IMG/VR virus record: IMGVR_UViG_3300014202_000736
Length of the DNA: 62,651 bases
Direction: 5' to 3' (one strand)
Origin: a virus
Positions 583 through 62,651 of the stretch are shown piece after piece (position 1 is the stretch's first letter; every line of letters begins with the position of its first letter). The notes beneath the pieces were generated by a model, which was not told the DNA's origin, did not search any database, and saw nothing but the letters and a program-made list of their open reading frames with translations. The position numbers were made by a program, and so were the translations under genes.

Positions 583-1070
583 GTTCGGCCATCTTCAACC
601 GTGGCGGCACGCATCGGCACATCTTGGTTCGAGATATTCAGGACGGTGGGCCCGTGGTCGGGTTCTTCGGCGTCAACGCCAGCACCGCCGACGGCAAACG
701 AGAGGACCAAACCACCCGCAAGTGGAATGGCTTCAGCTATCGCAACGGGTTCAGCAAATACCTCGTCGCCAACCCGTTCGACTACATCGCCACAGACGTT
801 AACGACCTGGCGAAATGTCCGAAGCCATGCAGCAGCGTCAACCTGAGGTACATTCAACAGGTGCTCGACGAAGCTGAGATCTTGATCCCATGCTGGGGCA
901 ACCGAGGCAAGGTACCTCGTCATCTATGGCCAAAGCTTGACGAACTGAAGATGATGATCTTCGCCACGTTGAAGCCGGTTCTGATTTTCGGCCTGACGAA
1001 AACAGGCGACCCGAAGCATCCGTTGATGCTGCCCTATGACACCCCACTTGTCGAATGGAAACACCTATGA
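579..1070 (+). CDS. DUF1643-like protein
   Basis: The motifs GVNASTAD, IPCWGNRG and TGDPKHPLMLPY resemble the NPSxAD...WG...HPL pattern of DUF1643. The start and stop are both coupled to neighbouring genes. Confidence 0.6.
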   Translation: MSSAIFNRGGTHRHILVRDIQDGGPVVGFFGVNASTADGKREDQTTRKWNGFSYRNGFSKYLVANPFDYIATDVNDLAKCPKPCSSVNLRYIQQVLDEAEILIPCWGNRGKVPRHLWPKLDELKMMIFATLKPVLIFGLTKTGDPKHPLMLPYDTPLVEWKHL

Positions 1071-1738
1071 ACTACGAGATCGCGACACAATCAACGGTGG
1101 ACTATGTCGACAAACTCGGCACAGACATCACCGTCGTCAACGCAGCCAGGGTCAGCTTCGACAAACACAGTGACCTGTTCGGCGGCGGCGACGATCGGCT
1201 TCTGAGGTACTTGGCTGAGCACGACCACTGGAGCCCGTTCGCCCACGCTCAAGTGCAGGTGCGCATTACGGCGCCAATCTTCGTCGCAAGGCAGCTGGTC
1301 AAGCACCAGATCGGCCTGGTCTGGAACGAGGTCAGCCGCCGCTACGTTACGGACGAACCGACGTTCTTCTTGCCCAAAGTGTGGAGGGGCAAGCCTCGAG
1401 ACGGGGCTAAACAAGGAAGCTTCGGTGAGGTTAAAATGCATCCGGATCTGATGACCAGGATTACGGACTTGATGTACGACGCCTCAAATCTCTACACAGA
1501 TTTAATGGACTTTGGTGTCTGCGCTGAGCAGGCCAGAATGTTCCTCCTCCAAAATCTCATGACTAGTTGGTACTGGACTGGTTCACTTTATGCGTGCGCC
1601 AGAGTATGCAGGCTCAGACTGGATCCCCACGCTCAAGGTGAGGCCCGAGACGTGGCCATCGCCATGAACAAGATCTGCCTGGAACATTTCCCTCACTCGT
1701 GGGAGAAGCTGGTTCCAGACTGTCATCAATGGACCTGA
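1067..1738 (+). CDS. thyX: FAD-dependent thymidylate synthase ThyX-like
   Basis: AARVSFD, APIFVARQ, NEVSRRY and LRLDPHAQ match the ThyX core. The signature RHR reads KHQ here. The start has an ATGA overlap with the upstream stop. Confidence 0.85.
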   Translation: MNYEIATQSTVDYVDKLGTDITVVNAARVSFDKHSDLFGGGDDRLLRYLAEHDHWSPFAHAQVQVRITAPIFVARQLVKHQIGLVWNEVSRRYVTDEPTFFLPKVWRGKPRDGAKQGSFGEVKMHPDLMTRITDLMYDASNLYTDLMDFGVCAEQARMFLLQNLMTSWYWTGSLYACARVCRLRLDPHAQGEARDVAIAMNKICLEHFPHSWEKLVPDCHQWT

Positions 1739-43952: not shown

Positions 43953-44738
43953 ATGACCGTTTCACAAGATAAACTTAACAAGGTCCGTCTTCTGATCAAG
44001 AAGGCCCAAGGCACCGACAACCCTCATGAGGCCGCAGCCTTCATGAACAAGGCCCAGGCCATGATGGTCGCCGAGGGCGTTGACATGCAAGCCGTTGAGA
44101 TGACCCAGATCGGAGAGTCTAGGGTCAAGAGCAAATTCACTGCCTCCAAGCCAGCGATGCATGAGGCTACTTTGATGCACGCCGTGTGTGAGGCCTTTGG
44201 CTGCAAGCTTCTTTGGATCGGCGCCGTGACGTCGGAGATGACCCCGTTCGGCAAGGTCCGTTACAGCGACAGCTACGGTCGCTTCGTCATCGTCGGCAGC
44301 AAGGACCGACTGAACCTCGCCACCTACGCCGCTGAGGTTCTCCAACGCCAGATGGTCAAGGCCAGGACTGAGTTTGTTCAGAAGCGATCAACCGCCTATT
44401 GGGACGTGGCCATCGGAGAAAACTTTGGTCTCGCTGCTCGCGACATCAGAGAGAACAAAGAGCTCAAAAGGCTCATCCGCAAGCAGGTCACCAAGGATGC
44501 CGACTCGTTCGCCTCTGGCTGGGCTTGGAAGATCCGCGAGAAGGTAACCAAGTTCGCCCTTAACGACCAGGAGCAACTGCTCCTTGACGGTTACAAGAAC
44601 GACATTCCCAAGGCCGAGACGAAGAAGCGCGAGCTCGGCCCTGACTTTCACAAGGGCGTGGCCGCCGCAGAAAGAGCAGACCTTCATCGACCAGTCGAAG
44701 ACTCGGTCCTGACACCTAAATCAATAGGTGCGGCGTGA
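43953..44738 (+). CDS. DUF2786-like protein
   Basis: The N-terminal segment KVRLLIKKAQGTDNPHEAAAFMNKAQAMM fits the pattern KLLAxAxxTxNxxEAxxAxxKAQxLM. Confidence 0.65.
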   Translation: MTVSQDKLNKVRLLIKKAQGTDNPHEAAAFMNKAQAMMVAEGVDMQAVEMTQIGESRVKSKFTASKPAMHEATLMHAVCEAFGCKLLWIGAVTSEMTPFGKVRYSDSYGRFVIVGSKDRLNLATYAAEVLQRQMVKARTEFVQKRSTAYWDVAIGENFGLAARDIRENKELKRLIRKQVTKDADSFASGWAWKIREKVTKFALNDQEQLLLDGYKNDIPKAETKKRELGPDFHKGVAAAERADLHRPVEDSVLTPKSIGAA

Positions 44739-44920: not shown

Positions 44921-44969
44921 GTAGCCTGCATCTACCGGCACGGTGCCGGCCATGCTGAAGGAGAATGAA

Positions 44970-45953
44970 ATGTCGCATGAACTGACCAAGCGTAGAGACG
45001 GCACGTACGAGCACGCCTTCGTCGGAGAAGTCGGCTGGCACGGGCTGGGCAACCAGCTCAAAGAAAATTCGAAGCTCGAGACCTGGCTGAAGGCTGCCGG
45101 CATGGACTGGGACATCAAGCGCTCGGCCATGATGTTCCAACCTGAGGACAACGGCCCTGTCGAAATCGACGGCCGCCAGATCCTCTATCGCGCTGACAAT
45201 CATCTTGCCCTCGGCGAGGTCAGCCAGCACTACAAGGTGGTGCAGCCCAAGGAAGTCCTCGAATTCTTTCGAGATCTCTGCGACAACAACGGCTTCGCTC
45301 TCAACACGGCGGGAACCTTGTTCGGAGGCAAGCGCTTCTGGGCTTTGGCCTCCATCGGCGAGACCGCGGTCGTGGTCGGCGAAGACCAGATCAAGGGCTA
45401 CTTGCTCTTGGCCACGAGCGCCGACGGTAGCCTCGCCACGACGGCTCAGTTCACCAGCATTCGAGTGGTGTGCAACAACACGCTGAGCTGGGCCCATTCT
45501 GAGGGCAAGAAGAAAAAGACCGGACGCGTCAGTGTCAGCCACCGCAGCCTCTTCAAGCCTGATGACGTCAAGGACGACCTCGGCATCGTGCGCGGCCAGT
45601 TCCGTGACTTCATGGTCGCCGCTCGTGCCCTGTCGAAGGTCAAGGCCTCTAAGCCTCTTGCGTCAGACTTCGTTTCGACGCTTCTGACTGACTCGAAGAC
45701 GATTGCGTCGGCTGAGCCGGCCAGCACGAAGGCCTTCAAACGGATCATGGAGCTCTTTGAGGGTCAGGGCAAAGGCGCTGACCTGAAGGGATCCAAGGAC
45801 ACGATGTGGGGCTTGGTCAACTCGGTCACCGAGTACGTCGACCATCACCAGAACGTCAAGTCGATCGAGCACCGGATGAACGACGCATTCTTCGGCCGCG
45901 GTGACCAGCTCAAGCGAATGGCGATGGACATGGCCATGGAGCAGGTCAAGTGA
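44970..45953 (+). CDS. DUF932 / TIGR03299-like phage-plasmid protein
   Basis: The N-terminal segment is YEHAFVGEVGWHGLGNQL. Size is about 327 aa. Confidence 0.7.
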   Translation: MSHELTKRRDGTYEHAFVGEVGWHGLGNQLKENSKLETWLKAAGMDWDIKRSAMMFQPEDNGPVEIDGRQILYRADNHLALGEVSQHYKVVQPKEVLEFFRDLCDNNGFALNTAGTLFGGKRFWALASIGETAVVVGEDQIKGYLLLATSADGSLATTAQFTSIRVVCNNTLSWAHSEGKKKKTGRVSVSHRSLFKPDDVKDDLGIVRGQFRDFMVAARALSKVKASKPLASDFVSTLLTDSKTIASAEPASTKAFKRIMELFEGQGKGADLKGSKDTMWGLVNSVTEYVDHHQNVKSIEHRMNDAFFGRGDQLKRMAMDMAMEQVK

Positions 45954-48120: not shown

Positions 48121-50097
48121 GTGCGCCAACCTAAGCCTGTCACGATCGACTTCGAGACCAAAGGCATCGAGCTCCGGCCAGACTACCCGCCGGAGCCTGT
48201 TGGTGTCTCGATCAAGAAGCCCGGCCAGAGACCCCGATACTACGGTTGGGGGCATCTGGCCGGAGGCAACAACTCATCCAAAGACGAGGCTGTCAAAGCC
48301 CTCCGCAAGGTGTGGGACCATCCCGACGGCTTGCTTTTCCACCATGCCAAGTTCGACCTCGACGTGGCCGAGTGTCGGCTAGGCCTTCCGATGCCGCCAC
48401 CGGACCGGGTTCACGACACCTTGTTTCTCCTGTACCTGGAGGATCCTCGTCTCCACAGCTTTAGCCTGAAGCCATGCTCTGAGACCTTTCTCGACATGCC
48501 GCCTGAGGAGCAGGATCTTCTTAAGGCGTGGATCCTCGACAAGAAGAACAAGGCCTGGATCGAGAGCCACCTCGGCCTCGACGCTGAAGGCAAGCAGATC
48601 ACTGTCAAACCGTCCAATTGGGGCGCCTACATCTGGTTCGCACCAGGCGAGGTGGTTGGACCATACGCGAACGGCGACGTGGTTCGGACTGAGGGCTTGT
48701 TCAACTTGCTGTGGCAGAGCATCCAGAAACGAGGCATGCTTGACGCCTACATGCGTGAGCGTCGTCTCATGCCCCACCTGCTTCGGTCGGAGCGTGAAGG
48801 CACCAGGGTCAACAAGGCTAGGCTTCGCAAGGACATCAACGCCTACGAAGATCTTCTTGTCCGCATCGACGACCGCATCAGAAAGAAGTGCAAGCGCGAC
48901 ATCAACGTCGACTCGCCTGCGGAGTTGGCCAACGCTCTCGTGGAGGCTGGTCTAGCTGACGATGGGCTGATGGGCTACACCAAGACCGGCAAGCTTAGCA
49001 CGAACAAGGCGGCCATCAAGGAGGGCGTGACAGACAAGGAGATTAGAGGCCTGCTACTTTATCGTGGGCCTCTGACCACATGCCTCGGCACTTTCATGAG
49101 GCCGTGGCTCCACACCGCTGAACGTTCCGATGGTCTTCTGTTCACGAACTGGAACCAGACCAAGAGCGGAGACGGCAAGAACAAGGTCGGCACCTCGACT
49201 GGTCGACTGTCCTCCACGCCCAACTTTCAGAATGTGCCGAAGGAATTCCCGCCTCTTGACAAGCTGATGCAGATCACGCCGGCGCAGTTGAAGACCTTGT
49301 GTGATCGACTGAGGATCCCGAAGCTCGAGCTTCTGCCACTGTGCCGAAGCTACATCGTGCCGTACGACAAGGGCCATGTGCTGATTGACCGAGACTACTC
49401 ACAGCAGGAGCTCAGGATCCTGGGCCACTACGAGGACGACGTTCTTTTTCAGGCCTATCTCAAGGACACGTGGCTCGACATGCACGAGTTCGCTCGTCAG
49501 CTCATCAAGAAGATCACCGGTACCCTGTACGATCGGAAGCCGGTCAAGAACACGAACTTTGGCATCATCTACGGGCAAGGGGCTCCGAGCCTGGCAGTCC
49601 GCAACGAAATTCCGGTGCACGAGTCTCGCCAGATCATCGACGGCATCCTCGCAGCTTTCCCTGGTGTGCAGGACCTGATTGACGACATGAAGGAGCGTGC
49701 TCGCAACGACGAGCCCATCCGAACATGGGGAGGCCGAGAGTACTTTTGCGAGCCGCCGATGTTCGTCGAGAAGTTTCAGCGTGTCATGAGCTTCGACTAC
49801 AAGCTATTGAACCTGCTCATCCAGGGGTCGGCAGCGGATTGCACGAAGGAAGCCATCATCCGGTGGTGCGAGGCCAAGCCGAACGACGACAAGTTCTTGA
49901 TGACCGTGCACGACGAAACCTTAGGCTCCACGCCGAAGGGTCGGATGCACGAGGCGATGACACTGATGCGTGAGAGCATGGAGAGCGTAGAGTTTGACAT
50001 TCCGATCTTGACCGAGGGCACGTGGTCGAACACCGACTGGGCCCACATGAAGGACTACGACAAAGAAGGGAAGATGATCGGTGGCCGTGCGAGATAG
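48121..50097 (+). CDS. Family-A DNA polymerase with a 3'-5' exonuclease domain
   Basis: ExoI is TIDFET. Motif A is LIDRDYSQQELRIL, motif B is RKPVKNTNFGIIYGQG and motif C is LMTVHDET. Confidence 0.9.
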   Translation: MRQPKPVTIDFETKGIELRPDYPPEPVGVSIKKPGQRPRYYGWGHLAGGNNSSKDEAVKALRKVWDHPDGLLFHHAKFDLDVAECRLGLPMPPPDRVHDTLFLLYLEDPRLHSFSLKPCSETFLDMPPEEQDLLKAWILDKKNKAWIESHLGLDAEGKQITVKPSNWGAYIWFAPGEVVGPYANGDVVRTEGLFNLLWQSIQKRGMLDAYMRERRLMPHLLRSEREGTRVNKARLRKDINAYEDLLVRIDDRIRKKCKRDINVDSPAELANALVEAGLADDGLMGYTKTGKLSTNKAAIKEGVTDKEIRGLLLYRGPLTTCLGTFMRPWLHTAERSDGLLFTNWNQTKSGDGKNKVGTSTGRLSSTPNFQNVPKEFPPLDKLMQITPAQLKTLCDRLRIPKLELLPLCRSYIVPYDKGHVLIDRDYSQQELRILGHYEDDVLFQAYLKDTWLDMHEFARQLIKKITGTLYDRKPVKNTNFGIIYGQGAPSLAVRNEIPVHESRQIIDGILAAFPGVQDLIDDMKERARNDEPIRTWGGREYFCEPPMFVEKFQRVMSFDYKLLNLLIQGSAADCTKEAIIRWCEAKPNDDKFLMTVHDETLGSTPKGRMHEAMTLMRESMESVEFDIPILTEGTWSNTDWAHMKDYDKEGKMIGGRAR

Positions 50098-53271: not shown

Positions 53272-54180
53272 ATGACAACCGAAATTCGTCCGTGCCAGCA
53301 GATTGGCGTCAAGCGCATTTGCTTCCTGGTGGACCTCGACAAGACCAGGGCCAAGATCCTGGACAACTTCGTCTGGGCCGTCGCCACCAAAGAGATCCCG
53401 ATCAAGGTCTGGAAGAAGGAGTGGAAGACGCTCCAGCTGCCTGAGGACAAGGTCGCGAAGATCCTCGACGGCCTAGCTGCCTACGCCATCTACGCTGGCA
53501 TGACGCCTGACGCAGGCGAGTACCTGCCGAACATGGTGCCGATGTCACAGCCGGCCCGGACCGTGGCCCTCAGCAAGGGCAAGGAGCTGCTCGAGCGCTA
53601 CAAGACCCAGGCCGAAATCGAAGAGGCGGCTGAAAAAGCCGGCAAGCCTCTGACCGGCGCCGCTCTGATGAGCGTCGTCAAGCGCGAGCTAGCCAAGGTC
53701 AGCGCCGAGGATGGGCTTCGGGGCCTGGACACACCTCCGGAGCAGCTCTCCGAACCAGGCACCGGCAACACGGCGACTGAGGACGGAGAGGTCACGCAGG
53801 ACAAGCCAGCTGGCCGAGTCGCTCGCCGAACCGAGACCAAGAAGGCGAAGCAGATTAAGACGCTCGCCGCCGAGGTCACGAAGGATCTGACCGAAGCTGA
53901 GCAGGCCGGCGAAAACCCGGCGAAGATCATGAAGAGCCGACCTCCAGTCGAACGGTCGAAGGGTTTTGACCCGGCCAAGCTCAAAGGCTCCGACGGCGAA
54001 TATAAGTCCGTCTCGGCCATGTTCAAGGGCCTCGTCCTCGAGAACGTCGGTAAGAAAAAGCCGTTGACCGACGACCAGATCTTCGAGAAGGTCAAGGCCA
54101 AGTTTGGCATCGACGAGTCAAAGCGCGGCTACGTCCAATGGAACCGCAATTGGCTGAAGAAGGAAGGAGTCATCGCATGA
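53272..54180 (+). CDS. Hypothetical protein (302 aa) with a charged central linker
   Basis: ORF preceded by gctgaaggagaatgacca. Confidence 0.5.
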   Translation: MTTEIRPCQQIGVKRICFLVDLDKTRAKILDNFVWAVATKEIPIKVWKKEWKTLQLPEDKVAKILDGLAAYAIYAGMTPDAGEYLPNMVPMSQPARTVALSKGKELLERYKTQAEIEEAAEKAGKPLTGAALMSVVKRELAKVSAEDGLRGLDTPPEQLSEPGTGNTATEDGEVTQDKPAGRVARRTETKKAKQIKTLAAEVTKDLTEAEQAGENPAKIMKSRPPVERSKGFDPAKLKGSDGEYKSVSAMFKGLVLENVGKKKPLTDDQIFEKVKAKFGIDESKRGYVQWNRNWLKKEGVIA

Positions 54181-54923
54181 GCAAGAGCATCATCGACCAA
54201 CAGGAGGTCGTTGTCGAGTCGGCCGATGGCAAGACCATCACTTATCGTTTCCAGCTCGAACGAGCAGACGACGTATTTACGATGTTGGTCTCAGCCGCCG
54301 ACTCCACTGGCAACTCTATTCGCCTTCGTGATGGTGACCACTACGTCGGCATGGTCCTGATGGCTCAGGCCAACATGATCGAGCAAGGGCTCCATATCAA
54401 GGAGCACGGGCCCGACGTGATGGAGGACATCGTCAAGTTCCATCAGAAGTTCAGCCTCGAATATCACGGCAAGCCGAGGATGCTCGAACCCGAGCTCTTC
54501 GACTTCCGCAGCCGCTTCCTCGAGGAGGAGCTGACCGAGTGGCGAGAGGAACAGGTCGGCCTGATCGAGGCGTTGACCTCGGACGACGGCAAGCCTGACC
54601 ATCGGCGCGTGGCCCTCGGTCTGCATCAACAGCTCGACGCGCTGGTCGACCTCGTCTACGTCGCCGTCGGCACGGCCTATCTCCAGTTCGGCCGCAAGAT
54701 TTTCAACGAGGCGTGGCGCAGGGTCCAGGCTGCCAACATGAGCAAGATCCGGGCCGAGAACGCCGGCCTGTCGAAGCGTGGCTCAGCGTTCGACGTTGTC
54801 AAGCCCGAAGGCTGGCAGGCGCCGGACCATCACGACCTCGTGAAGGACCACGCCCACATTCCGTTCCGGCAAAGCGGAGAGCTGAACCCAGGCCACGAAA
54901 AAGACACCCAGGTGATCGCATGA
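54177..54923 (+). CDS. MazG-like all-alpha NTP pyrophosphohydrolase with an extra N-terminal domain of about 85 aa
   Basis: The motifs are FHQKF...RFLEEELTEW...DALVDLVYVAVGTAY...EAWRRVQAANMSK. The start has an ATGA overlap. Confidence 0.7.
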   Translation: MSKSIIDQQEVVVESADGKTITYRFQLERADDVFTMLVSAADSTGNSIRLRDGDHYVGMVLMAQANMIEQGLHIKEHGPDVMEDIVKFHQKFSLEYHGKPRMLEPELFDFRSRFLEEELTEWREEQVGLIEALTSDDGKPDHRRVALGLHQQLDALVDLVYVAVGTAYLQFGRKIFNEAWRRVQAANMSKIRAENAGLSKRGSAFDVVKPEGWQAPDHHDLVKDHAHIPFRQSGELNPGHEKDTQVIA

Positions 54924-55093
54924 AGATCCAAATCGTATTGCCACTCTACAAAGAGTGCGTAGGCAGCTGGCGCTACCAGGCTGAGGACAAGGACGCCGTG
55001 ATCCAATCGGTCTACATTCGGAAGTCGGCCTTCAAGCAAGGCGAGCCTCCACCGAAGAGCATCCTTATCACGGTCAACGGGGTGGAGGCCTGA
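54920..55093 (+). CDS. Hypothetical protein (57 aa)
   Basis: Read manually. The start has an ATGA overlap. Confidence 0.4.
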   Translation: MKIQIVLPLYKECVGSWRYQAEDKDAVIQSVYIRKSAFKQGEPPPKSILITVNGVEA

Positions 55094-55094
55094 G

Positions 55095-56114
55095 ATGGCC
55101 AACCGACAAGTGGTCCTCAGCCCGTTCTACCCGATCTCGGACAAGCTCGACACCAGCCATCGAGCCGGCTGGGCCAGGTACTGGGCCAATGAGCTTAAGG
55201 CCGAGATCTTCACCACCGGTTCCATGGGCCAGATCGCCACCCTCAAAAAGGGCGACGAGATCCTGATGTACCACGGTATGGAGTTCAAAGGCCAGCTGAA
55301 CCTCCAGTCTGGCCTCACGGATGAGATCCTGGGCCGCGTCAAGCTCGTGCTGGATGCGAAGAAGCGGGGAGTGGTGTTCGGATCACTCGACGTGCCAGGG
55401 CCTCGTTACGGGCGGCTTCTGGCGGACCGTGGCATGGATCCTGACTCGGCTGAGGCGCTGGACAAGGTCGGCACGAACACGCCGTTCCTCGGGGCGCCGA
55501 ACAAGGGCAAGCTGGTGGTGATCGGTGACAGCCACGCCCTGAGCCTCTATCGGCCAGGTTCCACCATCAGCCGATCCGACGGCCTGACCCTCCACGGCGC
55601 ATTGAAGACTGGCCTCAGCCAGCACATGCAGAACTTCGTCTTTGAAGCCGACGCTGGCTTGGCCAAGGCCGACGTGCTGACGTTCTACTTCGGCAACATT
55701 GACATTCGCCACCATCTCGGACGTCAACCAGATCCGAAGGCGTCGATCAAAGAGCTGGTTGACGAGTACGGTCAACAGCTCGCCATGGTTGTCAAGGACT
55801 TCCGACCGAAGGTGCTCGAGGTAGTGATGCCGCTGCCAATCGAGGACGAGAGTCGCCCCATTCCGAAGTCTGGCTGGTACAAGGGCGCACCGTTCTTTGG
55901 CCCGTGGAGCGTGCGTCACCAGATGCGGCTCGAGCTGCGTGATCGGCTGAGACGGATGTGCAAAAAGTACGGGTTCGCGTCGTACGAGCATCCGAGACAC
56001 TTCGTCGGCCGAGATGGCAAGCTGCCGTTCGAGGTGATGGAGAAGCCTCGGTCGGTGCACGTCAGGCCGGCGGAGTATCGGCTGGTGCAGGAAGGCCAGG
56101 CGTGGAATGGCTGA
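55095..56114 (+). CDS. Two-domain protein of unknown function whose C-terminal half has SGNH-hydrolase-like blocks
   Basis: VVIGDSHA resembles GDS block I and FYFGNIDIRHH resembles GxND block III. The evidence is weak. Confidence 0.45.
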   Translation: MANRQVVLSPFYPISDKLDTSHRAGWARYWANELKAEIFTTGSMGQIATLKKGDEILMYHGMEFKGQLNLQSGLTDEILGRVKLVLDAKKRGVVFGSLDVPGPRYGRLLADRGMDPDSAEALDKVGTNTPFLGAPNKGKLVVIGDSHALSLYRPGSTISRSDGLTLHGALKTGLSQHMQNFVFEADAGLAKADVLTFYFGNIDIRHHLGRQPDPKASIKELVDEYGQQLAMVVKDFRPKVLEVVMPLPIEDESRPIPKSGWYKGAPFFGPWSVRHQMRLELRDRLRRMCKKYGFASYEHPRHFVGRDGKLPFEVMEKPRSVHVRPAEYRLVQEGQAWNG

Positions 56115-56340
56115 ATATCAAGATGAGCTGACTCCTCTGAACGACGTTCTCGAACCTCAGCACCAACTCCTACCGGTAACTCGAGGTCGAGAGTCAGAGT
56201 CCTGGGTCGACTCTGCAATAATTTCAGCTGCCATCAGCCTGAAGCGCATTGCCGACATGCTCGAGGCTGTCGTTGACCACAATCGAGACGAGCCGATGGG
56301 GCCGGCGATCCGCACTCAACGACCCGGGGACGAGCGGTGA
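56107..56340 (+). CDS. Hypothetical protein (77 aa)
   Basis: ORF overlapping the upstream stop. Confidence 0.4.
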   Translation: MAEYQDELTPLNDVLEPQHQLLPVTRGRESESWVDSAIISAAISLKRIADMLEAVVDHNRDEPMGPAIRTQRPGDER

Positions 56341-56627
56341 CGGGTGTGAACCGCAATCGCTATGGACGTGCCATTAGCCAACCCATCGGTCCCTGGCCCG
56401 GGTTCGAAGCCGAGGACGAAACTTGGGAGACGGTAGATCCCTCCCATCCTGAGTTACTTCCTCCTCCAGGTCAGTTGGTCGAAGTATTTTGGGTCGTTGC
56501 CAATCTTGAGTACAACACTCTTCGGATCTCGTACGGGAAGTGCTCCATGGTCGGAGACCGCAAGTGGCTGAACGAAGATGGCCAACAGGTGGTCTTCAAC
56601 CCTAAGTTTTGGAGGCCGATCCCATGA
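56337..56627 (+). CDS. Hypothetical protein (96 aa)
   Basis: GTG start overlapping the upstream stop. Confidence 0.45.
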   Translation: MTGVNRNRYGRAISQPIGPWPGFEAEDETWETVDPSHPELLPPPGQLVEVFWVVANLEYNTLRISYGKCSMVGDRKWLNEDGQQVVFNPKFWRPIP

Positions 56628-57811
56628 CGAGAACAGTGAAGCGAGGGTCGATCAAGCTCGAGGAGAACGTGACACCTCCGTCGGCTCTGGAACTCAAGAT
56701 CGGAAAGATCACGCTCGCCGTCAACGAGCCAATCGTTGCAGACCCCAAAGCCTTCGAAAAGAAGGTCAAGGCTGGCTTCAGAGCTTTTGCCATCGCCCAC
56801 GATCGTGGGCTCAGGCCAACGCCCTACTTCTTTGAGGCGATCGACTACGTGCGCAAAGCCAAGATCTTACAGGCTGCAAGCCTGGAGAACGGAGGTCTCG
56901 GCGCCGAGAAGGTGCCGAAGGTCGGAGACCCGTTGATGGAGACCATCCCGATCTACAACACAGTCCAACGTCGCTACGCCGGCTTCTCCAACGTGCTCGA
57001 GCAACTGTGGTACGGCAGCCGAGCTCCGAAGGTGCAAGCCAACAAGGCTCGAGGGTTCTATGACCCGAAACTGAAAGCGTGGAAAGGCATCTCTAAGATC
57101 TTACCTCGCGAGTGGCTCTATCTGTGCCTTGCCCATCGCATCACGGGGTCTGGAGCGTCGTTCGAGTGGGACCACGGCTGGCGCAATAATCGGATCTACG
57201 AGATTGCCTACTTAGACAAGATGAGTGAGATGTCCCATCGGTTGTCTACGTACGATGGGCCGATCTTCACTAGCATCGGCAACCAGATCCCACCATTTCC
57301 AAAGTGCGGAGGCAGAGAATATCTCGACTATCTTGCACCTCAGCTCGTGCTCAAGACATATAAGTGGCTGTCGTGGCGCGCCACCCAAAGCGGGCCTGCG
57401 CCCATTAAGCAAGTCGTAGATAAGGTGCTCGAGTTTCACACTGAGCTCGGCTGCAAGCAGTTCAAGTTCGTGCTGACGGCCTGGGTCATGGACATCGCCG
57501 AGTACATGCCTCACCTGGTCGACCCCAACTCCGACTGCTACCACGGCAAGAACGCCATCGAAGCGGTGGACATCTGCTTCTACAACACGACGATGACGCG
57601 CCAGCAGAAGCTCGATGCCGCCACCAGGCTCTTTGCCGACGTCAGCGGTACTCAGCCCATGGACGTAGAAGACGCCAGCCCTGGCTGTGACCTGGTCCGA
57701 TGGATTGAGAATTACGTGCCGAAGAAGGGGTTCGATCACGTGCACGAGAACGAGATTTTCAACGGCTCGAGCTTGACGTGGTCTCATGGACGTCAACCGC
57801 CGCCATTTTAG
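56624..57811 (+). CDS. Large orphan protein (395 aa), candidate DNA/nucleotide base-modifying enzyme (aGPT-Pplase-like is hypothesis only)
   Basis: Motif-like islands are LAHRITGSGASFEWDHGWRNN, GNQIPPFPKCGG and FVLTAWVMDIAEY. The assignment rests on genomic context only. Confidence 0.5.
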   Translation: MTRTVKRGSIKLEENVTPPSALELKIGKITLAVNEPIVADPKAFEKKVKAGFRAFAIAHDRGLRPTPYFFEAIDYVRKAKILQAASLENGGLGAEKVPKVGDPLMETIPIYNTVQRRYAGFSNVLEQLWYGSRAPKVQANKARGFYDPKLKAWKGISKILPREWLYLCLAHRITGSGASFEWDHGWRNNRIYEIAYLDKMSEMSHRLSTYDGPIFTSIGNQIPPFPKCGGREYLDYLAPQLVLKTYKWLSWRATQSGPAPIKQVVDKVLEFHTELGCKQFKFVLTAWVMDIAEYMPHLVDPNSDCYHGKNAIEAVDICFYNTTMTRQQKLDAATRLFADVSGTQPMDVEDASPGCDLVRWIENYVPKKGFDHVHENEIFNGSSLTWSHGRQPPPF

Positions 57812-57820
57812 CTGTGTACA
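57803..57820 (+). promoter_or_regulatory. Degenerate conserved box CCATTTTAGCTGTGTACA
   Basis: It spans the stop of the upstream gene and lies 48 nt upstream of ATG 57868. Confidence 0.35.
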
Positions 57821-57867
57821 GGCTCATGTTCGCATAGTAGCCAAGGATCTTGCTGAAGGGGATCAGA

Positions 57868-58059
57868 ATGAACCTGAACTTCAATGCCGCTGAGAATGAG
57901 CTTCTGCTCACGCAGACCGCCATGGTCCGAGCATCAGATAATCGGCTTGGCGCCGGCGTAGTGCTAAACCCGTCGGGCAAGACCCTTTGCTCGTGCGACG
58001 AGGACGAGCAGGCCCATCTGATCGCGAAGCTCTTCAACAATGGGCTCAAGATCCCATGA
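57868..58059 (+). CDS. Hypothetical protein (63 aa)
   Basis: ORF preceded by gctgaaggggatcaga. Confidence 0.45.
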   Translation: MNLNFNAAENELLLTQTAMVRASDNRLGAGVVLNPSGKTLCSCDEDEQAHLIAKLFNNGLKIP

Positions 58060-58322
58060 CCGAGCTTCCTGAGGCCGACAAGTACATGGAGGCGGTTTTC
58101 CTCCAGAAGATTAGAGCCAAGGCCAAACGTACGTTCGGCTGTGGGCTGAGCGTCACCGTTGACGAGGTCGAGGAGATCTTTTGGTCTCAAAACCCTGAGC
58201 TGCTTGAGTCGCTTGAGCCTCGAGGCCAACTCGATGAAGCGAAACAGATGTTTCGTGACCGGTTCCTTGAGAGTCTCACGATCAATGTAGAGGAAAACGG
58301 CATCAAGGTGGTCCGAGCATGA
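58056..58322 (+). CDS. Hypothetical protein (88 aa)
   Basis: ATGA overlap. Confidence 0.45.
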   Translation: MTELPEADKYMEAVFLQKIRAKAKRTFGCGLSVTVDEVEEIFWSQNPELLESLEPRGQLDEAKQMFRDRFLESLTINVEENGIKVVRA

Positions 58323-58558
58323 AAGATCCATTCGACCGCTTCACCGACTGGCTTCGTCGACAGACGGACAAGACGGTTGACGACCCACCTGTCCACGGCT
58401 GGTTGATCCAATACTTCTTCGGTTTGTTCGGCCTCTTCATCATGGTGACGGCGGAGCCTGAAGATCCTAGGTTCATGATTGGCATGATGTGCTTCGGCAC
58501 GTACTCCATCATCCGAACCATACGTGTGATCGAGAAGGAACGTCGAGATGGCGCATAA
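58319..58558 (+). CDS. Membrane protein with two TM helices (79 aa)
   Basis: The TM helices are WLIQYFFGLFGLFIMV and FMIGMMCFGTYSII. Confidence 0.5.
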   Translation: MKDPFDRFTDWLRRQTDKTVDDPPVHGWLIQYFFGLFGLFIMVTAEPEDPRFMIGMMCFGTYSIIRTIRVIEKERRDGA

Positions 58559-59513
58559 CAACCACACCACCGACTCGACCATCCGAGAGTTCGTCAAGGA
58601 CGGTGTGACGCCTGAGTCATTGGTCCGCATGGCTGAAGGCTGGGTCGACCCGTTCCCAGAGCCGGTGGTCGAAAAGGTTCGAACGACGAACACCGTGGCT
58701 GACCAGAACCGGAACGGAGTGATTGGAAAAACTGTGTTCGTCGTGCGTGACGACCTGCCTGAAATGGGCAGCAAGGGCAGGTTCGGCAGCCTGCTGGTGC
58801 AGCGGATCAAGGATGACACGATCGTCTACGTCGCACCACGCGTAGGCTGGGCCGCCATCAGTCTGGCTAAGCTGTGCAACATGTATGACAAGCGCCTGAT
58901 CCTCTTCGCGCCGGCGTGCAAGGAGCCGAGTGACCACCAACGAGTGGCCATGGAGCTCGGAGCTGACATGAGGTTCTACCGGGTGGCGGCGATGCCGAAC
59001 CTGCAGCGTGAGGCTGAGGCGTTCGCCAAAAAGCACGGCTACTTCTTTGCTCCCCTCGGGCTTCGTCACCCGCTGGTCACGGCGGCAATCGTAGCTACAG
59101 TCAAGAAGATCATGGCCAAGCGTCGAGTGCCGTTGACTGGCAAGGAACGGCGTCAGATGTGGTGTGCCATGTCCACCGGTGTGCTGAGCCGTGGGCTTCA
59201 GATTGCTTTGCCGAACTGGGACCATCACGGCGTCGCCGTGGCTCGCAACATTCACTCCGGTGAGCGTGGCCATGCCGAGATCCACAGTCACCCGTACGCA
59301 TTCACTCAGAATGAGATGCCGGCGCTTCGGCCTCCGTTCCCATCGGCGTCGAACTATGACGCCAAGGTGTGGCGCTACATCTGCGATGAAGGCGAAGACG
59401 GATGCTGGTTCTGGAACGTCGCGGGCGAGATCCTGCCGACGAAGCCGTTGCCACCGAGGTGGTCCAAGTCCGACGTGCCATACAACGATCGCTCAGCGTT
59501 CAGGAGGAAGTAG
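58548..59513 (+). CDS. PLP-dependent fold-type II enzyme (ACC-deaminase / D-cysteine-desulfhydrase-like)
   Basis: VFVVRDDLPEMGSKGRFGSLL resembles KRDDLxxxxGGNKxRKL, with a candidate PLP lysine. Size is 321 aa. Confidence 0.6.
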   Translation: MAHNNHTTDSTIREFVKDGVTPESLVRMAEGWVDPFPEPVVEKVRTTNTVADQNRNGVIGKTVFVVRDDLPEMGSKGRFGSLLVQRIKDDTIVYVAPRVGWAAISLAKLCNMYDKRLILFAPACKEPSDHQRVAMELGADMRFYRVAAMPNLQREAEAFAKKHGYFFAPLGLRHPLVTAAIVATVKKIMAKRRVPLTGKERRQMWCAMSTGVLSRGLQIALPNWDHHGVAVARNIHSGERGHAEIHSHPYAFTQNEMPALRPPFPSASNYDAKVWRYICDEGEDGCWFWNVAGEILPTKPLPPRWSKSDVPYNDRSAFRRK

Positions 59514-60445
59514 TGCTGCAACCATTGACCATCTTTGAAGGCCCTGATTGCTCAGGCAAATCGACCGCGGCAAATGAATTCTGGCAGCTCGCTCGAACGA
59601 GCCAGAAGCGGATCCACCACGGGCCGTATCCGGGCATCAAGAAGATGCTGCCTCGGCTGTACGTGGAGACAATGCTGCCGATGCTCGATGGTGGCGCTGG
59701 TCAAGTCTGGGATCGGGCCTGGTACTCTGAGCCGATTTACGGCGCCTCGTTCCGGAACGGCGAAGACCGGGTCGGCTCAGTTGCTTCACGCCACCTGGAA
59801 CGCTTCGCTCTTCGTCACGGTGCCGTCGTTGTGCTCTGTCTGCCGCCGTGGGACACAGTCCGTGAAAGTTGGCTCAAGCGCAAGGGCGAGGAGTACCTCG
59901 ACAAGGTCGAGCAGCTCGAGAAGGTCTACAACGACTACTCCGACCTTCGTCGGTGGTGCGGTCTGCCCGTGGTGCTGTACGACTACGAACGTCACTCGAT
60001 TGACCAGATGTCTGAGGCCGTCGAACGGGCCAGGCTCGGCATCTTCAAGGAACCGAAGATCCACGCCGGCGGCAACCCGAACGCCAAAGTCGTCTTGGTC
60101 GGCGACAGGTGCAGCGACCTCAAGGACGAAGACTGCAACTGGCGCCTGCCGTTTGCCAGCTTCTCTGGCGGCGGCTCGAGTTCGTGGTTGACCAGAAAGT
60201 TGATGGATCTCAAAGTTCGAGAAGACCAGCTTCTCTGGGTCAACGCTAGCGATCGCCTCGAGTGGCTCGACGAGCGCCACAATGAGCTTGTCATCGCACT
60301 CGGTCAAGAAGCGGCAAGGAAGCTTGTCCACCACGACATTCCTCATGTGGAGGTAGAGCACCCGCAATACTTCAAGCGTTTTCGTGAGGGCGACGAAGCC
60401 GCCGTCTACGAACTTTTTGAAATCTTGGAAGGATTGAACCCATGA
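59513..60445 (+). CDS. Fusion protein with an N-terminal thymidylate-kinase-like P-loop dNMP kinase and a C-terminal UDG-superfamily (family-4-like) domain
   Basis: Kinase: FEGPDCSGKST and VWDRAWYSEPIYG. UDG-like: KVVLVGDRCSDLKDEDCNWRLPFASFSGGGSSSWLTRKL and a terminal HPQYFKR. The GTG start has an aggagga SD. Confidence 0.7.
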   Translation: MLQPLTIFEGPDCSGKSTAANEFWQLARTSQKRIHHGPYPGIKKMLPRLYVETMLPMLDGGAGQVWDRAWYSEPIYGASFRNGEDRVGSVASRHLERFALRHGAVVVLCLPPWDTVRESWLKRKGEEYLDKVEQLEKVYNDYSDLRRWCGLPVVLYDYERHSIDQMSEAVERARLGIFKEPKIHAGGNPNAKVVLVGDRCSDLKDEDCNWRLPFASFSGGGSSSWLTRKLMDLKVREDQLLWVNASDRLEWLDERHNELVIALGQEAARKLVHHDIPHVEVEHPQYFKRFREGDEAAVYELFEILEGLNP

Positions 60446-61260
60446 GCGTAGCTCTAGACCTGAACATCGAATGGAAAAAGCTTCTCGGCGACGTTGTTCG
60501 TCGTGGCCAGCTCGTTCAGCCTCGAGGGTTGAACACGAAGGAGCTGCCGCAGATGACGATGATGTTCAGCATGCTCTATCCTGTCATCACACACGCTGAG
60601 CGGAAGCTCGGCTATCGGTTCATGGCGGCCGAAGCGTGGTGGATCCTGTCAGGCCGGAATGACGTGGCGTCCATCGCGCCCTACTCGAAAGCCATCAGCG
60701 AATTCAGCGACGACGGCCAGTACTTCTTCGGCAGCTACGGCGTGCCGTTCGTGGACCAACTCGCCTATGTGGTCAACACTCTTCGAAACGACATCGACAC
60801 GCGCCAGGCCACGATGACGTTCTGGCGTCAGTGCCCGCCGAAGACGAAAGACGTGCCGTGCACCATTGCGATCGACTTCAAGATCCGCAAGGGCAGGTTG
60901 AACGCCCACGTCTTCATGCGCTCAAGCGACGTCTGGCTTGGCGTGCCGTACGACTCGTTCAACTTCACGATGATGGCCTGCCGCGTGCTCGAGCTATACA
61001 ACGACGGCCTGGCCGACGATGACCGGGTTGGCCTGGGCACCTGCTTCTTGACGGCGGCGAGCAGCCACCTGTACGAGAAGAATTGGCTCGACGCTGAGCA
61101 GGTGCTGAAGTCGGCCGTGCCGTCACCAGCCACGGTGCCCGTTCCTAAAGCTCTCTACGGCAAAAATTCAGACACGCCGGTCGACCTGATCCCGTTCCTC
61201 GACACGCTGAAGGACGAGACAAGCGACGAGTCGCCGTATCGTTGGTGGGTGCCGAGATGA
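60442..61260 (+). CDS. Thymidylate-synthase-family pyrimidine nucleotide C5-(hydroxy)methylase, dCMP-hydroxymethylase-like
   Basis: The motifs are EAWWILSG, FGSYG, DIDTRQATMTFW, catalytic PC(140)T and MRSSDVWLGVPYD(171)SFNF. Asp sits where ThyA has Asn177. Confidence 0.8.
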   Translation: MSVALDLNIEWKKLLGDVVRRGQLVQPRGLNTKELPQMTMMFSMLYPVITHAERKLGYRFMAAEAWWILSGRNDVASIAPYSKAISEFSDDGQYFFGSYGVPFVDQLAYVVNTLRNDIDTRQATMTFWRQCPPKTKDVPCTIAIDFKIRKGRLNAHVFMRSSDVWLGVPYDSFNFTMMACRVLELYNDGLADDDRVGLGTCFLTAASSHLYEKNWLDAEQVLKSAVPSPATVPVPKALYGKNSDTPVDLIPFLDTLKDETSDESPYRWWVPR

Positions 61261-61406
61261 AGAACCTGGAGTCCATCGTGATGCGGCTCCTCGTCGGCGT
61301 CATGCTCCTGTTTTTGTGCGTGGCAGTCTTGATCCACAAGGTCGAGAAGCTCGACCAGAAGATCAACCATCTTGAGATGGTCGACGTGGTGATCCCTGAT
61401 GGTTAA
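61257..61406 (+). CDS. Small membrane protein (49 aa, one TM helix)
   Basis: Read manually as MKNLESIVMRLLVGVMLLFLCVAVLI.... The start has an ATGA overlap. Confidence 0.4.
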   Translation: MKNLESIVMRLLVGVMLLFLCVAVLIHKVEKLDQKINHLEMVDVVIPDG

Positions 61407-61554
61407 GATCCTGCTCACGCTCACCATTTTCATGGCCATCGTGTCTGGCGTCACGCTCGCGTTGGCTGAGGATCCGATCACCGCTTCGATGCCGCTCTTC
61501 CTGACTGGCTGGTTCGGCGTCTTTACCTTTTGGGTCGGAAGGAGCCGCAAATGA
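61399..61554 (+). CDS. Small membrane protein (51 aa, two TM helices)
   Basis: Read manually as MVKILLTLTIFMAIVSGVTLALA...LFLTGWFGVFTFWV. The stop overlaps the next ATG. Confidence 0.4.
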   Translation: MVKILLTLTIFMAIVSGVTLALAEDPITASMPLFLTGWFGVFTFWVGRSRK

Positions 61555-62129
61555 GCTTTCGAAGCTTGGCGAAGCAACGCACTCTTAGGATCAGTCGTCA
61601 CGAGTGGGCGATCAGCCTGGCGGTCATGACCTCCAAGCGTGCCACGTGTGTGCGCCGCCAAGTCGGCTGCATCCTGGTTGACAAGGACTGGTACGTCCTT
61701 GCTACCGGGTTCAACGGTGTGCCATCAGGCTTACCCCACTGCAACGACCCAGGGAACATCAGCAAGCTTCGAGCCGTGCCATCTGACGACGGGAACGAGT
61801 TGACCAACTTCTCGTTTCCCAACGCCTGTCCAGGAGCCTTCGCCGAGAGCGGCACGAACCTGGACGGATGCCACGCCATCCACGCTGAGCAGAATGCTCT
61901 GCTTCGGTGCCGGGACCCTCGTGAGATCTTCGCATGCTATGCCACGGCCAGCCCGTGCATGACGTGCGTCAAGCTGCTGATGAACACCGGCTGCAGGCAG
62001 ATCTACTTCCTCGAACCTTATGCCCATGACGAGCCAGCCCGAGAGCTGTGGGAGTCGCTTCGGGGCAAAGGTGCGTGGATCCACCTGACGCCTGAGCTCG
62101 AGGCCCAGCTGAGGGAGCACGGTCAATGA
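61551..62129 (+). CDS. dCMP deaminase
   Basis: The zinc motifs are CHAIHAEQNAL and SPCMTCVKLL. The start follows a ggaaggag SD. Confidence 0.85.
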   Translation: MSFRSLAKQRTLRISRHEWAISLAVMTSKRATCVRRQVGCILVDKDWYVLATGFNGVPSGLPHCNDPGNISKLRAVPSDDGNELTNFSFPNACPGAFAESGTNLDGCHAIHAEQNALLRCRDPREIFACYATASPCMTCVKLLMNTGCRQIYFLEPYAHDEPARELWESLRGKGAWIHLTPELEAQLREHGQ

Positions 62130-62371
62130 GACCAGAGACGCTCGATGAAACGATCAGAGAGATCTTCGACGCCGTGTTCCATGCTGCTCAGGTAAGGATC
62201 GAGGCCAGAGGCACCAACGACGACGAAGATGACGATGGGAAGCCTATCGACCCGATCCACAGATACGCTGATGCGTTGGTCAAAGAAGCTGTCCCTCTAG
62301 CCGTCATCGGTCTGTTTCTCATCGGCTATCGAAGCGTCAAAGCCGAGATCAAGGAGTCACTTGAGTCATGA
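62126..62371 (+). CDS. Hypothetical protein with an acidic stretch and a C-terminal TM helix (81 aa)
   Basis: ORF with an ATGA overlap. Confidence 0.45.
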   Translation: MRPETLDETIREIFDAVFHAAQVRIEARGTNDDEDDDGKPIDPIHRYADALVKEAVPLAVIGLFLIGYRSVKAEIKESLES

Positions 62372-62651
62372 ACATCTGTCAACGGCACTGGGAAGACCTT
62401 CGAAAAAAGGTCGATGAACGAGGCATGTCGCATCTTGTTTCTTCCAATGGTGAGGAGGCGATGGCGAGAACCCTTGCCCAGCTCAACAACGAAGACACAT
62501 CAGACGATTGGGACCCGTTGATGGCGGCGTTCTTCGCCATCGGCCAGTGGGCATTGAACCGAATGGGTCTGGCCGTGCTGCAGCCAGGATTTTGTCCGCT
62601 GTGCCAGGTGCAGCGGAGCTTCGAGAACGTCAAGCTGTTGCCTGAGTTCGA
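62368..62651 (+). CDS. Hypothetical protein, 5' part. It runs off the window end and continues at 72-171 after the repeat is collapsed.
   Basis: ATG 62368 has an ATGA overlap with the upstream stop. There is no stop before the window end. Confidence 0.5.
   Translation, partial: MNICQRHWEDLRKKVDERGMSHLVSSNGEEAMARTLAQLNNEDTSDDWDPLMAAFFAIGQWALNRMGLAVLQPGFCPLCQVQRSFENVKLLPEF
62581..62651. repeat. Terminal direct repeat, copy 2 (identical to 1-71)
   Basis: Read directly from the sequence. Confidence 0.95.

Follow-up and report, generated by a model that had tools for sequence, protein, structure and literature searches.

A thymidylate synthase homolog of an uncultured phage is predicted to be a folate-dependent deoxycytidylate 5-hydroxymethylase and neighbours a candidate cytosine hypermodification cassette

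The virus record IMGVR_UViG_3300014202_000736 from IMG/VR, a stretch of 62,651 nucleotides that is called the window below, encodes a homolog of thymidylate synthase (TS) at positions 60442–61260. Based on its active-site residues, this protein is probably a folate-dependent deoxycytidylate (dCMP) 5-hydroxymethylase, and these residues point to a phage genome in which cytosine is very probably replaced. We infer the substrate, the product and the order of the pathway steps by analogy with characterised enzymes. The enzyme type is already known, and predicting the products of TS homologs with Asp instead of Asn at position 177 (N177D) in viromes is established practice. An earlier reading of this DNA from its letters, without database searches (the sequence-only reading), had described an open reading frame (ORF) here with Cys140 followed by Thr141 and with Asp171, and codon translation gave exactly this frame and these residues. 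The gene and its two active-site segments are as follows, with the residue numbers of E. coli ThyA in brackets.

60442..61260, plus strand: TS-fold enzyme of 272 aa, predicted folate-dependent dCMP 5-hydroxymethylase (PF00303, match to MilA in the PDB, signature residues)
60850..60864, plus strand: DVPCT, with Asp137 (Leu143), catalytic Cys140 (Cys146) and Thr141 (His147), from the translation and alignments
60916..60954, plus strand: MRSSDVWLGVPYD, with Arg160 (Arg166), Ser161 (Ser167), Asp163 (Asp169) and Asp171 (Asn177), from the translation and alignments

The protein matched the Pfam family Thymidylat_synt PF00303 (E=3.5e-18, 66.1 bits against a cut-off of 24.3, model positions 3-223 of 266) and also four PHROG families named "thymidylate synthase". 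The NCBIfam equivalog models for thymidylate synthase gave at best 55.2 bits against a cut-off of 174.55, and no equivalog-level name is assigned. Active-site residues were compared in three independent alignments, namely HMMER pairwise alignments to PDB chains, a MAFFT alignment of 10 sequences and a MAFFT alignment of 129 sequences. The MAFFT references (E. coli ThyA, T4 gp42, RB69 gp48, the TS homolog of Xp12 and the deoxyuridylate (dUMP) hydroxymethylase of SP8) were taken from GenBank/RefSeq, and the residues of MilA in the 10-sequence alignment were taken from the PDB pairwise match. In all three alignments, Asp171 was aligned with Asn177 of E. coli ThyA and Asp179 of T4 gp42, and Cys140 with Cys146 and Cys148 of these two proteins, respectively. 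As no other residue fell on the Asn177 position, the Asn-to-Asp switch claimed in the sequence-only reading stands, and so does its statement that the catalytic Cys is followed by Thr, as in gp42, and not by His, as in ThyA. The ThyA and gp42 motifs that it had quoted proved to be the actual sequences when the fetched records were aligned by MAFFT. Residues E64, Y99, C140, R160, H209 and Y211 correspond to E58, Y94, C146, R166, H207 and Y209 of the E. coli enzyme, and this catalytic and conserved set was invariant or nearly so in the 10- and 129-sequence alignments. Arg121 and Ser161 occupy the positions of Arg126 and Ser167. At positions 143/146/147/169/177 (E. coli numbering, also used below for the corresponding columns), the following residues were found.

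Window protein: D/C/T/D/D
T4 gp42: D/C/T/D/D
MilA: D/C/T/D/D
ThyA: L/C/H/D/N
Xp12: N/C/P/D/D
RB69 gp48: E/C/T/N/D
SP8: D/C/N/D/N

Thus, aligned with ThyA, T4 gp42, SP8 (SPO1-like) and Xp12, the window protein shows the D/C/T/D/D pattern of gp42. The 120 best homologs from a search of a database of 5.8 billion proteins all kept D143/C146/T147/D169/D177 (120/120), and the pattern is therefore under selection and not a chance substitution. At least 1,315 proteins matched the TS homolog at E≤1e-10.

The N177D replacement is the classical determinant of the preference for dCMP over dUMP. The MetaGPA study found that TS homologs of cytosine-modified viral contigs are best told apart from those of unmodified ones by positions 177 and 147 (PMC8670742). 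The rules for TS homologs were summarised and extended by in-vivo product assays by Lee et al. 2026 (PMC13326640). According to that work, a bulky Leu143 keeps water out and accompanies methyl products, Asp or Glu at position 143 correlates with hydroxymethyl or hydroxy products, and D169N is the mark of flavin-dependent 5-hydroxy-dCMP synthases, since 9/9 of the D169N enzymes tested made 5-hydroxydeoxycytidine (5hodC). Asp137 together with the retained Asp163 therefore predicts a folate-dependent hydroxymethylase. As for the sugar, Ala176 and Lys133' set the preference of MilA for ribo-CMP, and the A176S/K133R replacement reverses this preference (PMC5175136); the presence of Ser161 and Arg121 in the window protein therefore predicts a 2'-deoxy substrate.

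By analogy to T4 gp42 and MilA, we suggest the following reaction. Cys140 would attack C6 of dCMP, and Asp171 would hydrogen-bond to or protonate cytosine N3/N4, selecting C over U. The methylene group of 5,10-methylene-tetrahydrofolate (THF) would then pass to C5. The exocyclic methylene intermediate is proposed to be hydrated, not reduced, owing to the acidic Asp137 in place of the hydrophobic Leu143 of ThyA, and THF would leave unoxidised.

The best sequence match in the PDB was MilA (5b6d/5jnh; 2.8e-15, residues 27-233, 207 aligned residues), the best other TS reaching 1.2e-11 and E. coli ThyA about 1e-10. In tblastn, the scores were 93 bits for SP8, 77 for Xp12 and 65 for ThyA. Identities were about 35% to MilA, about 30% to SP8, 26–28% to Xp12, 22% to ThyA and 20% to gp42. 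Judged by sequence comparison, the TS homolog is predicted to act like gp42 but is not its ortholog, and represents an independent lineage nearer MilA and SP8. T4 gp42 (EC 2.1.2.8; PDB 1B5D/1B5E) shares with it the TS fold and identical D143, C146, T147, S167, D169, D177 and R126, whereas Trp80 is missing from the window protein and its C-terminal 50 residues differ, ending in a conserved RWW motif. MilA, the CMP 5-hydroxymethylase of Streptomyces rimofaciens (PDB 5B6D, 5JNH), has the D/C/T/D/D signature in common but carries the ribo-CMP residues Ala176 and Lys133, in contrast to Ser161 and Arg121 of the window protein, which as a pair convert MilA to a dCMP enzyme; MilA also serves an antibiotic (mildiomycin) pathway rather than phage DNA. 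The SPO1/SP8-type dUMP hydroxymethylase had the top BLAST score among characterised phage TS homologs. The SP8 and window proteins share the motifs NKNxxQFSDDG and DTRQA, Asp143 and Gln127; however, SP8 has Asn177 and Asn147, hence its dUMP specificity, while the window protein has Asp171 and Thr141. Asp177 and Asp169 are also found in the Xp12/PaMx74-type dCMP methyltransferases, along with a siphovirus context with an adjoining deaminase and nucleoside triphosphate (NTP) pyrophosphohydrolase, but Xp12 has Asn143, Pro147 and a gene like that of dihydrofolate reductase (DHFR) beside the methylase. Finally, canonical ThyA differs by Asn177, His147 and Leu143 in place of Asp171, Thr141 and Asp137.

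The other genes of the window that bear on this prediction, including three genes (g339, g400 and a pyridoxal phosphate (PLP) enzyme gene, hereafter the trio) that sit between the pyrophosphatase and kinase genes, are listed below.

1055..1738, plus strand: ThyX flavin-dependent thymidylate synthase (Pfam Thy1 6.2e-39)
48121-50097: family-A DNA polymerase
54138..54923, plus strand: MazG/PRA-PH-type NTP pyrophosphohydrolase, candidate dCTPase and functional analogue of T4 gp56 (PRA-PH 3e-5; phrog_671 2.1e-21)
55095..56114, plus strand: g339, SGNH/GDSL-like protein (Lipase_GDSL 2.6e-4, below the cut-off; phrog_13881 3.6e-49)
56609..57811, plus strand: g400, all-alpha protein resembling amino-acid:DNA transferase (AADT), aGPT-Pplase and the helical domain of 5-hydroxymethyldeoxyuridine (5-hmdU) DNA kinase (AlphaFold2 (AF2) model, predicted local distance difference test score (pLDDT) 89)
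58548..59513, plus strand: PLP fold-type-II enzyme, like 1-aminocyclopropane-1-carboxylate (ACC) deaminase and D-cysteine desulfhydrase, with invariant Lys76 (AF2 model, pLDDT 93.6; PALP 3.7e-6)
59495..60445, plus strand: P-loop deoxynucleoside monophosphate (dNMP) or deoxynucleoside (dN) kinase-like domain with a C-terminal domain like the uracil-DNA glycosylase (UDG) superfamily (phrog_761 9.2e-12; profile matches)
61530..62129, plus strand: dCMP/dCTP deaminase family protein with HAE and PCxxC motifs (PF00383 9.5e-16; phrog_174 7.8e-34)

The stop codon of the kinase-like gene overlaps the start codon of the TS gene (ATGA at 60442-60445). This ORF is listed from 59402, overlapping the PLP enzyme gene, while its homologs begin near 59495, and the start at 59402 is probably too early. 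Among PDB sequences, the family profile matched YorR of SPbeta (1.6e-10), the thymidylate kinases Tmk (3e-5) and T. maritima UDG (0.22). The C-terminal third carries the motifs VGDKFSE, PFGSF and HPQYxKRF, with a weak Pfam UDG match (0.0049). The protein is predicted to be a kinase for modified dCMP. Only the kinase part of the fusion is present in Pelagibacter and Microbacterium phages. It is also seen that the fusion recalls the 5-hmdU DNA kinases, which combine a kinase with a glycosylase-like base-flipping domain; by this analogy, its substrate might be DNA and not a dNMP.

Based on these annotations, we suggest the following pathway. The MazG-type pyrophosphatase would supply dCMP and remove dCTP, and the translationally coupled kinase-like protein would take hydroxymethyl-dCMP (hm-dCMP) towards hm-dCTP for the family-A DNA polymerase of the phage. 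The deaminase and ThyX, both of which the sequence-only reading had named as a separate source of deoxythymidylate (dTMP) and both of which are present, would produce dTMP. Since ThyX is present, the dTMP supply is expected to be independent of 5-methyl-dCTP deamination, unlike that of Xp12-type phages. By analogy, the pyrophosphatase, the kinase, the Asp177 TS homolog, the deaminase and the separate thymidylate synthase would mirror gp56, gp1, gp42, cd and td of T4. The pathway logic is thus alike, with analogues of the dCTPase and the dNMP kinase, a dCMP deaminase and a separate thymidylate synthase, except that dTMP would come from ThyX and not from a ThyA-type td and that no glucosyltransferase partner was found in the window. 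No DHFR, glycosyltransferase or T4 beta-GT homolog was found in the window, where the ORFs of the structural module were only partly scanned with Pfam. Co-location of deaminase, N177D TS, PRA-PH and PolA genes is typical of cytosine-modified viral contigs (bioRxiv 2024.12.05.627091). The deaminase at 61530-62129 may be an ordinary dCMP deaminase feeding ThyX or of the type acting on C5-modified deoxycytidine nucleotides; its NCBIfam scores were far below the cut-off.

The module of MazG, kinase/UDG, TS and deaminase genes is kept in Stenotrophomonas phage AXL3, Pseudoxanthomonas phage PW916 and a Manatee Spring siphovirus. The TS homolog is 48–53% identical to AXL3 gp28 (52%), PW916 ORF60 and its Manatee Spring counterpart (MW202621), which have the same signature, and the depositors of the Manatee Spring sequence named this gene 'pyrimidine hmase'. 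At the nucleotide level, blastn of positions 58000-62651 gave only patches of 65–70% identity to AXL3, PW916 and a Manatee Spring contig. AXL3 DNA was not cut by 35/37 restriction enzymes, the exceptions being TasI (AATT) and Tru1I (TTAA); from this, the authors of that work concluded that the G/C bases carry modifications (PMC7504290). The only experimental evidence on the clade is this resistance, which fits cytosine replacement and does not distinguish 5-methylcytosine (5mC) from 5-hydroxymethylcytosine (5hmC). These three phages lack the trio and have instead an S-adenosylmethionine (SAM) methyltransferase (Methyltransf_23) upstream. AXL3 gp31 (L003 3635-4459) and the 'capping protein' of the Manatee Spring phage (L001 3796-4545) are Methyltransf_23 proteins of the small-molecule type, encoded just upstream of the module. 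It is possible that Methyltransf_23 further modifies the C5 substituent in these trio-less relatives.

It should be noted that several points weigh against a dCMP 5-hydroxymethylase. The position-143 rule is a correlation from few characterised enzymes, and it is not sharp, because the Xp12 methylase has Asn there and not a hydrophobic residue. Identity to T4 gp42 is only about 20%, with no tblastn match at 1e-3, so that the function is assigned from active-site residues that are either convergent or retained. The restriction pattern of AXL3 is equally compatible with 5mC, 5hmC or guanine modification. In addition, the window protein has Gln in place of Arg127, as SP8 does, and does not keep Trp80/Trp83; given these differences, cofactor binding may differ.

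The sequence-only reading had allowed either hydroxymethylation or methylation. Its cytosine nucleotide is supported, while of the two reactions hydroxymethylation is favoured, on the grounds that the window protein has Asp and Thr at positions 143 and 147 and Xp12 and DoCa10 have Asn and Pro. An Xp12-type dCMP C5-methyltransferase, which would reductively methylate dCMP to 5-methyl-dCMP (5mdCMP) with the production of dihydrofolate (DHF), appears unlikely to us, although it has Asp177 in common with the Xp12 TS homolog, ThyA becomes a dCMP methylase in N177D/N229D mutants (cited in PMC8670742), 5mdCMP was shown to be the product of five metagenomic TS homologs linked to deaminases (bioRxiv 2024.12.05.627091) and full 5mC would fit the restriction resistance of AXL3. 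Besides the residues at 143 and 147, the window protein is less identical to the Xp12 protein than to MilA and SP8, which are hydroxymethylases, the search of the window, with its structural module partly scanned with Pfam, gave no DHFR whereas the DHFR gene of Xp12 adjoins the TS gene, and with ThyX a route from 5mdCTP to dTTP is unneeded. Moreover, the adjoining transferase-like genes are sensible only given a hydroxyl handle. A third product, 5-hydroxy-dCMP, does not figure in the sequence-only reading. A flavin-dependent synthase of this product, of the kind of RB69 gp48 or DLP3 gp80, is suggested by Asp177, Cys-Thr and the acidic residue at 143, all of which RB69 gp48 has in common with the window protein. 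However, the window protein lacks the D169N replacement, retaining Asp163 in the column where RB69 gp48 has Asn, its identity to RB69 gp48 is about 20%, and no glycosyltransferase or NDP-sugar genes were detected in the window; this function is extremely unlikely.

Action on a uracil nucleotide (in dTMP synthesis or dUMP hydroxymethylation) or, as in MilA, on ribo-CMP is suggested by the labels 'thymidylate synthase' and 'deoxyuridylate hydroxymethyltransferase' that relatives bear in GenBank, by the SP8 dUMP hydroxymethylase being the nearest characterised phage enzyme by BLAST, and by a CMP enzyme being the top PDB match. These labels are automatic, though, Asp replaces Asn177 in 120/120 homologs, and the scores for thymidylate synthase equivalogs are far under the NCBIfam cut-offs (55 vs 174.55 bits). 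With dTMP already coming from ThyX, and with Ser and Arg at the ribose determinants of MilA forming the combination that switches it to dCMP, we regard such substrates as highly improbable. It may also be supposed that hm-dCMP is made but that the adjoining deaminase turns much of it into hm-dUMP, so that the DNA base would be a derivative of 5-hydroxymethyluracil. Seven deaminases encoded next to N177D TS genes gave 5-hydroxymethyldeoxyuridine (5hmdU) from the 5-hydroxymethyldeoxycytidine (5hmdC) pool in vivo (bioRxiv 2024.12.05.627091), and g400 and the neighbouring PLP enzyme resemble thymidine-hypermodification enzymes (PMC8989533). Nevertheless, AXL3, with the same pair of TS and deaminase, is cut at AATT and TTAA and at no site containing G/C, most loci with the trio and an Asp177 TS homolog have no deaminase in their flanks, ThyX points to an ordinary dTMP supply, and the known phages that hypermodify thymine use Asn177 dUMP hydroxymethylases (PMC8989533). 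Such a uracil derivative is thus very unlikely.

With dCMP 5-hydroxymethylase as the preferred function, this uncultured phage of about 62.7 kb joins the viruses predicted to replace C by 5hmC, together with a large metagenomic clade whose annotation does not go beyond "thymidylate synthase". The automatic names of the relatives ("thymidylate synthase", "deoxyuridylate hydroxymethyltransferase") are probably wrong on substrate or product. This has a bearing on the evasion of restriction and CRISPR, on sequencing bias and on the mining of nucleotide-modifying enzymes.

The more valuable lead is the strict link of Asp177-type hydroxymethylases to the trio of SGNH-like, AADT-like and PLP proteins. 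The SGNH-type motifs GDSHS and GNIDIRHH are invariant in g339. An equally long (339-aa) ORF upstream in Xp12 was considered as its counterpart, but no match was found. For g400, a Foldseek search of the BFVD with the model gave an 'Amino acid:DNA transferase domain-containing protein' (E=4.5e-17, template modelling (TM) score 0.70), with weaker matches to the SP10 5-hmdU DNA kinase (0.023), Pplase1 (aGPT-Pplase clade 1; 0.027) and the helical domain of the PhiW-14 kinase. Sequence searches with g400 gave no matches in Pfam (including aGPT-Pplase), PHROG or the PDB, and the family profiles of g400 and g339 gave nothing useful against PDB sequences. Against PDB structures, the g400 model gave nothing significant, with weak helix-hairpin-helix-like matches to AGOG and Qng1. 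The expected match to the solved AADT PaMx11 gp46 (8Z2M) was absent in both structure and profile searches, and the designation "AADT-like" is therefore founded on the predicted structures of the BFVD alone. The PLP enzyme model matched 4d8w (D-cysteine desulfhydrase; 1e-11) and 1j0a (4.7e-10) in a Foldseek search of the PDB. For ViI gp226, a decarboxylase in thymidine hypermodification, 1j0a was reported as the template (PMC8989533), and the window enzyme is like the fold-type-II enzymes ViI gp226 and M6 gp52 of thymidine hypermodification clusters.

To characterise the genomic context of the trio, we used 82 loci, namely 80 from a scan of IMG/VR with the g400 family and two Logan loci (L015, L016). 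The trio was co-located in about 78/82 loci. A TS homolog was found within the flanks of 68/82, none of them with Asn177, and R126/D143/C146/T147/S167/D169/D177 were present in all of these trio-linked TS homologs (68/68). At 60% identity they form 17 clusters, among them gp42-like ones (45–54% identical to gp42); although the 82 loci are phylogenetically non-independent, the 17 TS clusters lessen this concern. In some loci the genes form tight single operons, with the order MazG-TS-g339-PLP-g400 in L024 and TS-g339-g400-PLP in L045. The tie of the trio to divergent Asp177 TS lineages therefore suggests that it tailors the 5hmC product. We tentatively propose that the trio further derivatises 5hmC, in DNA or as a nucleotide, which would be an undescribed cytosine hypermodification with the hydroxymethylase as the entry step; this is a possibility somewhat short of even chances. 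By analogy, such a pathway would be the cytosine counterpart of the amino-acid-derived thymidine hypermodifications in M6, ViI and PaMx11, with the difference from a thymidine-type cluster that the trio-linked TS homologs have Asp177 (68/68), rather than being Asn177 dUMP hydroxymethylases.

Some observations weigh against hypermodification. Four trio loci with full flanks (L015, L016, L040, L051) had no TS homolog, and no C5 methylase or TET as an alternative 5hmC source was found in them among 25/39 families. No DNA kinase of the known type (5-HMUDK) was found, as the window kinase had no tblastn match in M6, PaMx11, ViI or SP10 and compact operons such as L024 contained none. Furthermore, g400 is only structurally similar to the proteins named AADT. 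In the literature, we found no description of an AADT acting on 5hmC or of this trio cassette. If the link of the trio to Asp177-type hydroxymethylases is real, amino-acid-type hypermodification exists for cytosine and not for thymine alone, and AXL3-like and window-like phages would be ready test systems.

A homolog of the PLP fold-type-II enzyme is fused to an N6_N4 DNA methylase domain in an 812-aa protein of Erythrobacter phage ZS04 (L013 2326-4764). In Microcystis phage Mae-JY30 (L014 5081-6672), the homolog directly follows ORFs labelled ParB/sulfiredoxin, of which the scanned one matches Pfam N6_N4_Mtase. The PLP-domain proteins of both phages carry the GenBank label DNA methylase. This points to a DNA-linked role of the PLP family.

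The nucleotide-metabolism cluster at 53272-62651, at the right end of the window, continues at 1-2016 into ThyX at the left end. In relatives of about 62–63 kb (L010-L012), ThyX follows the deaminase by a few genes, and a JGI contig of 62,704 bp encodes an identical TS protein. In all probability, then, the window represents the whole genome of a phage in circularly permuted form. The replication region (43953-44738, 44943-45953 and 38902-41016) encodes DUF7168/DUF2786 and DUF932 proteins and a primase-helicase-like protein with DUF3854 and DUF5906. Of these domains, DUF932 and DUF5906 are seen again in L024 and L015, two distant loci that carry the trio.

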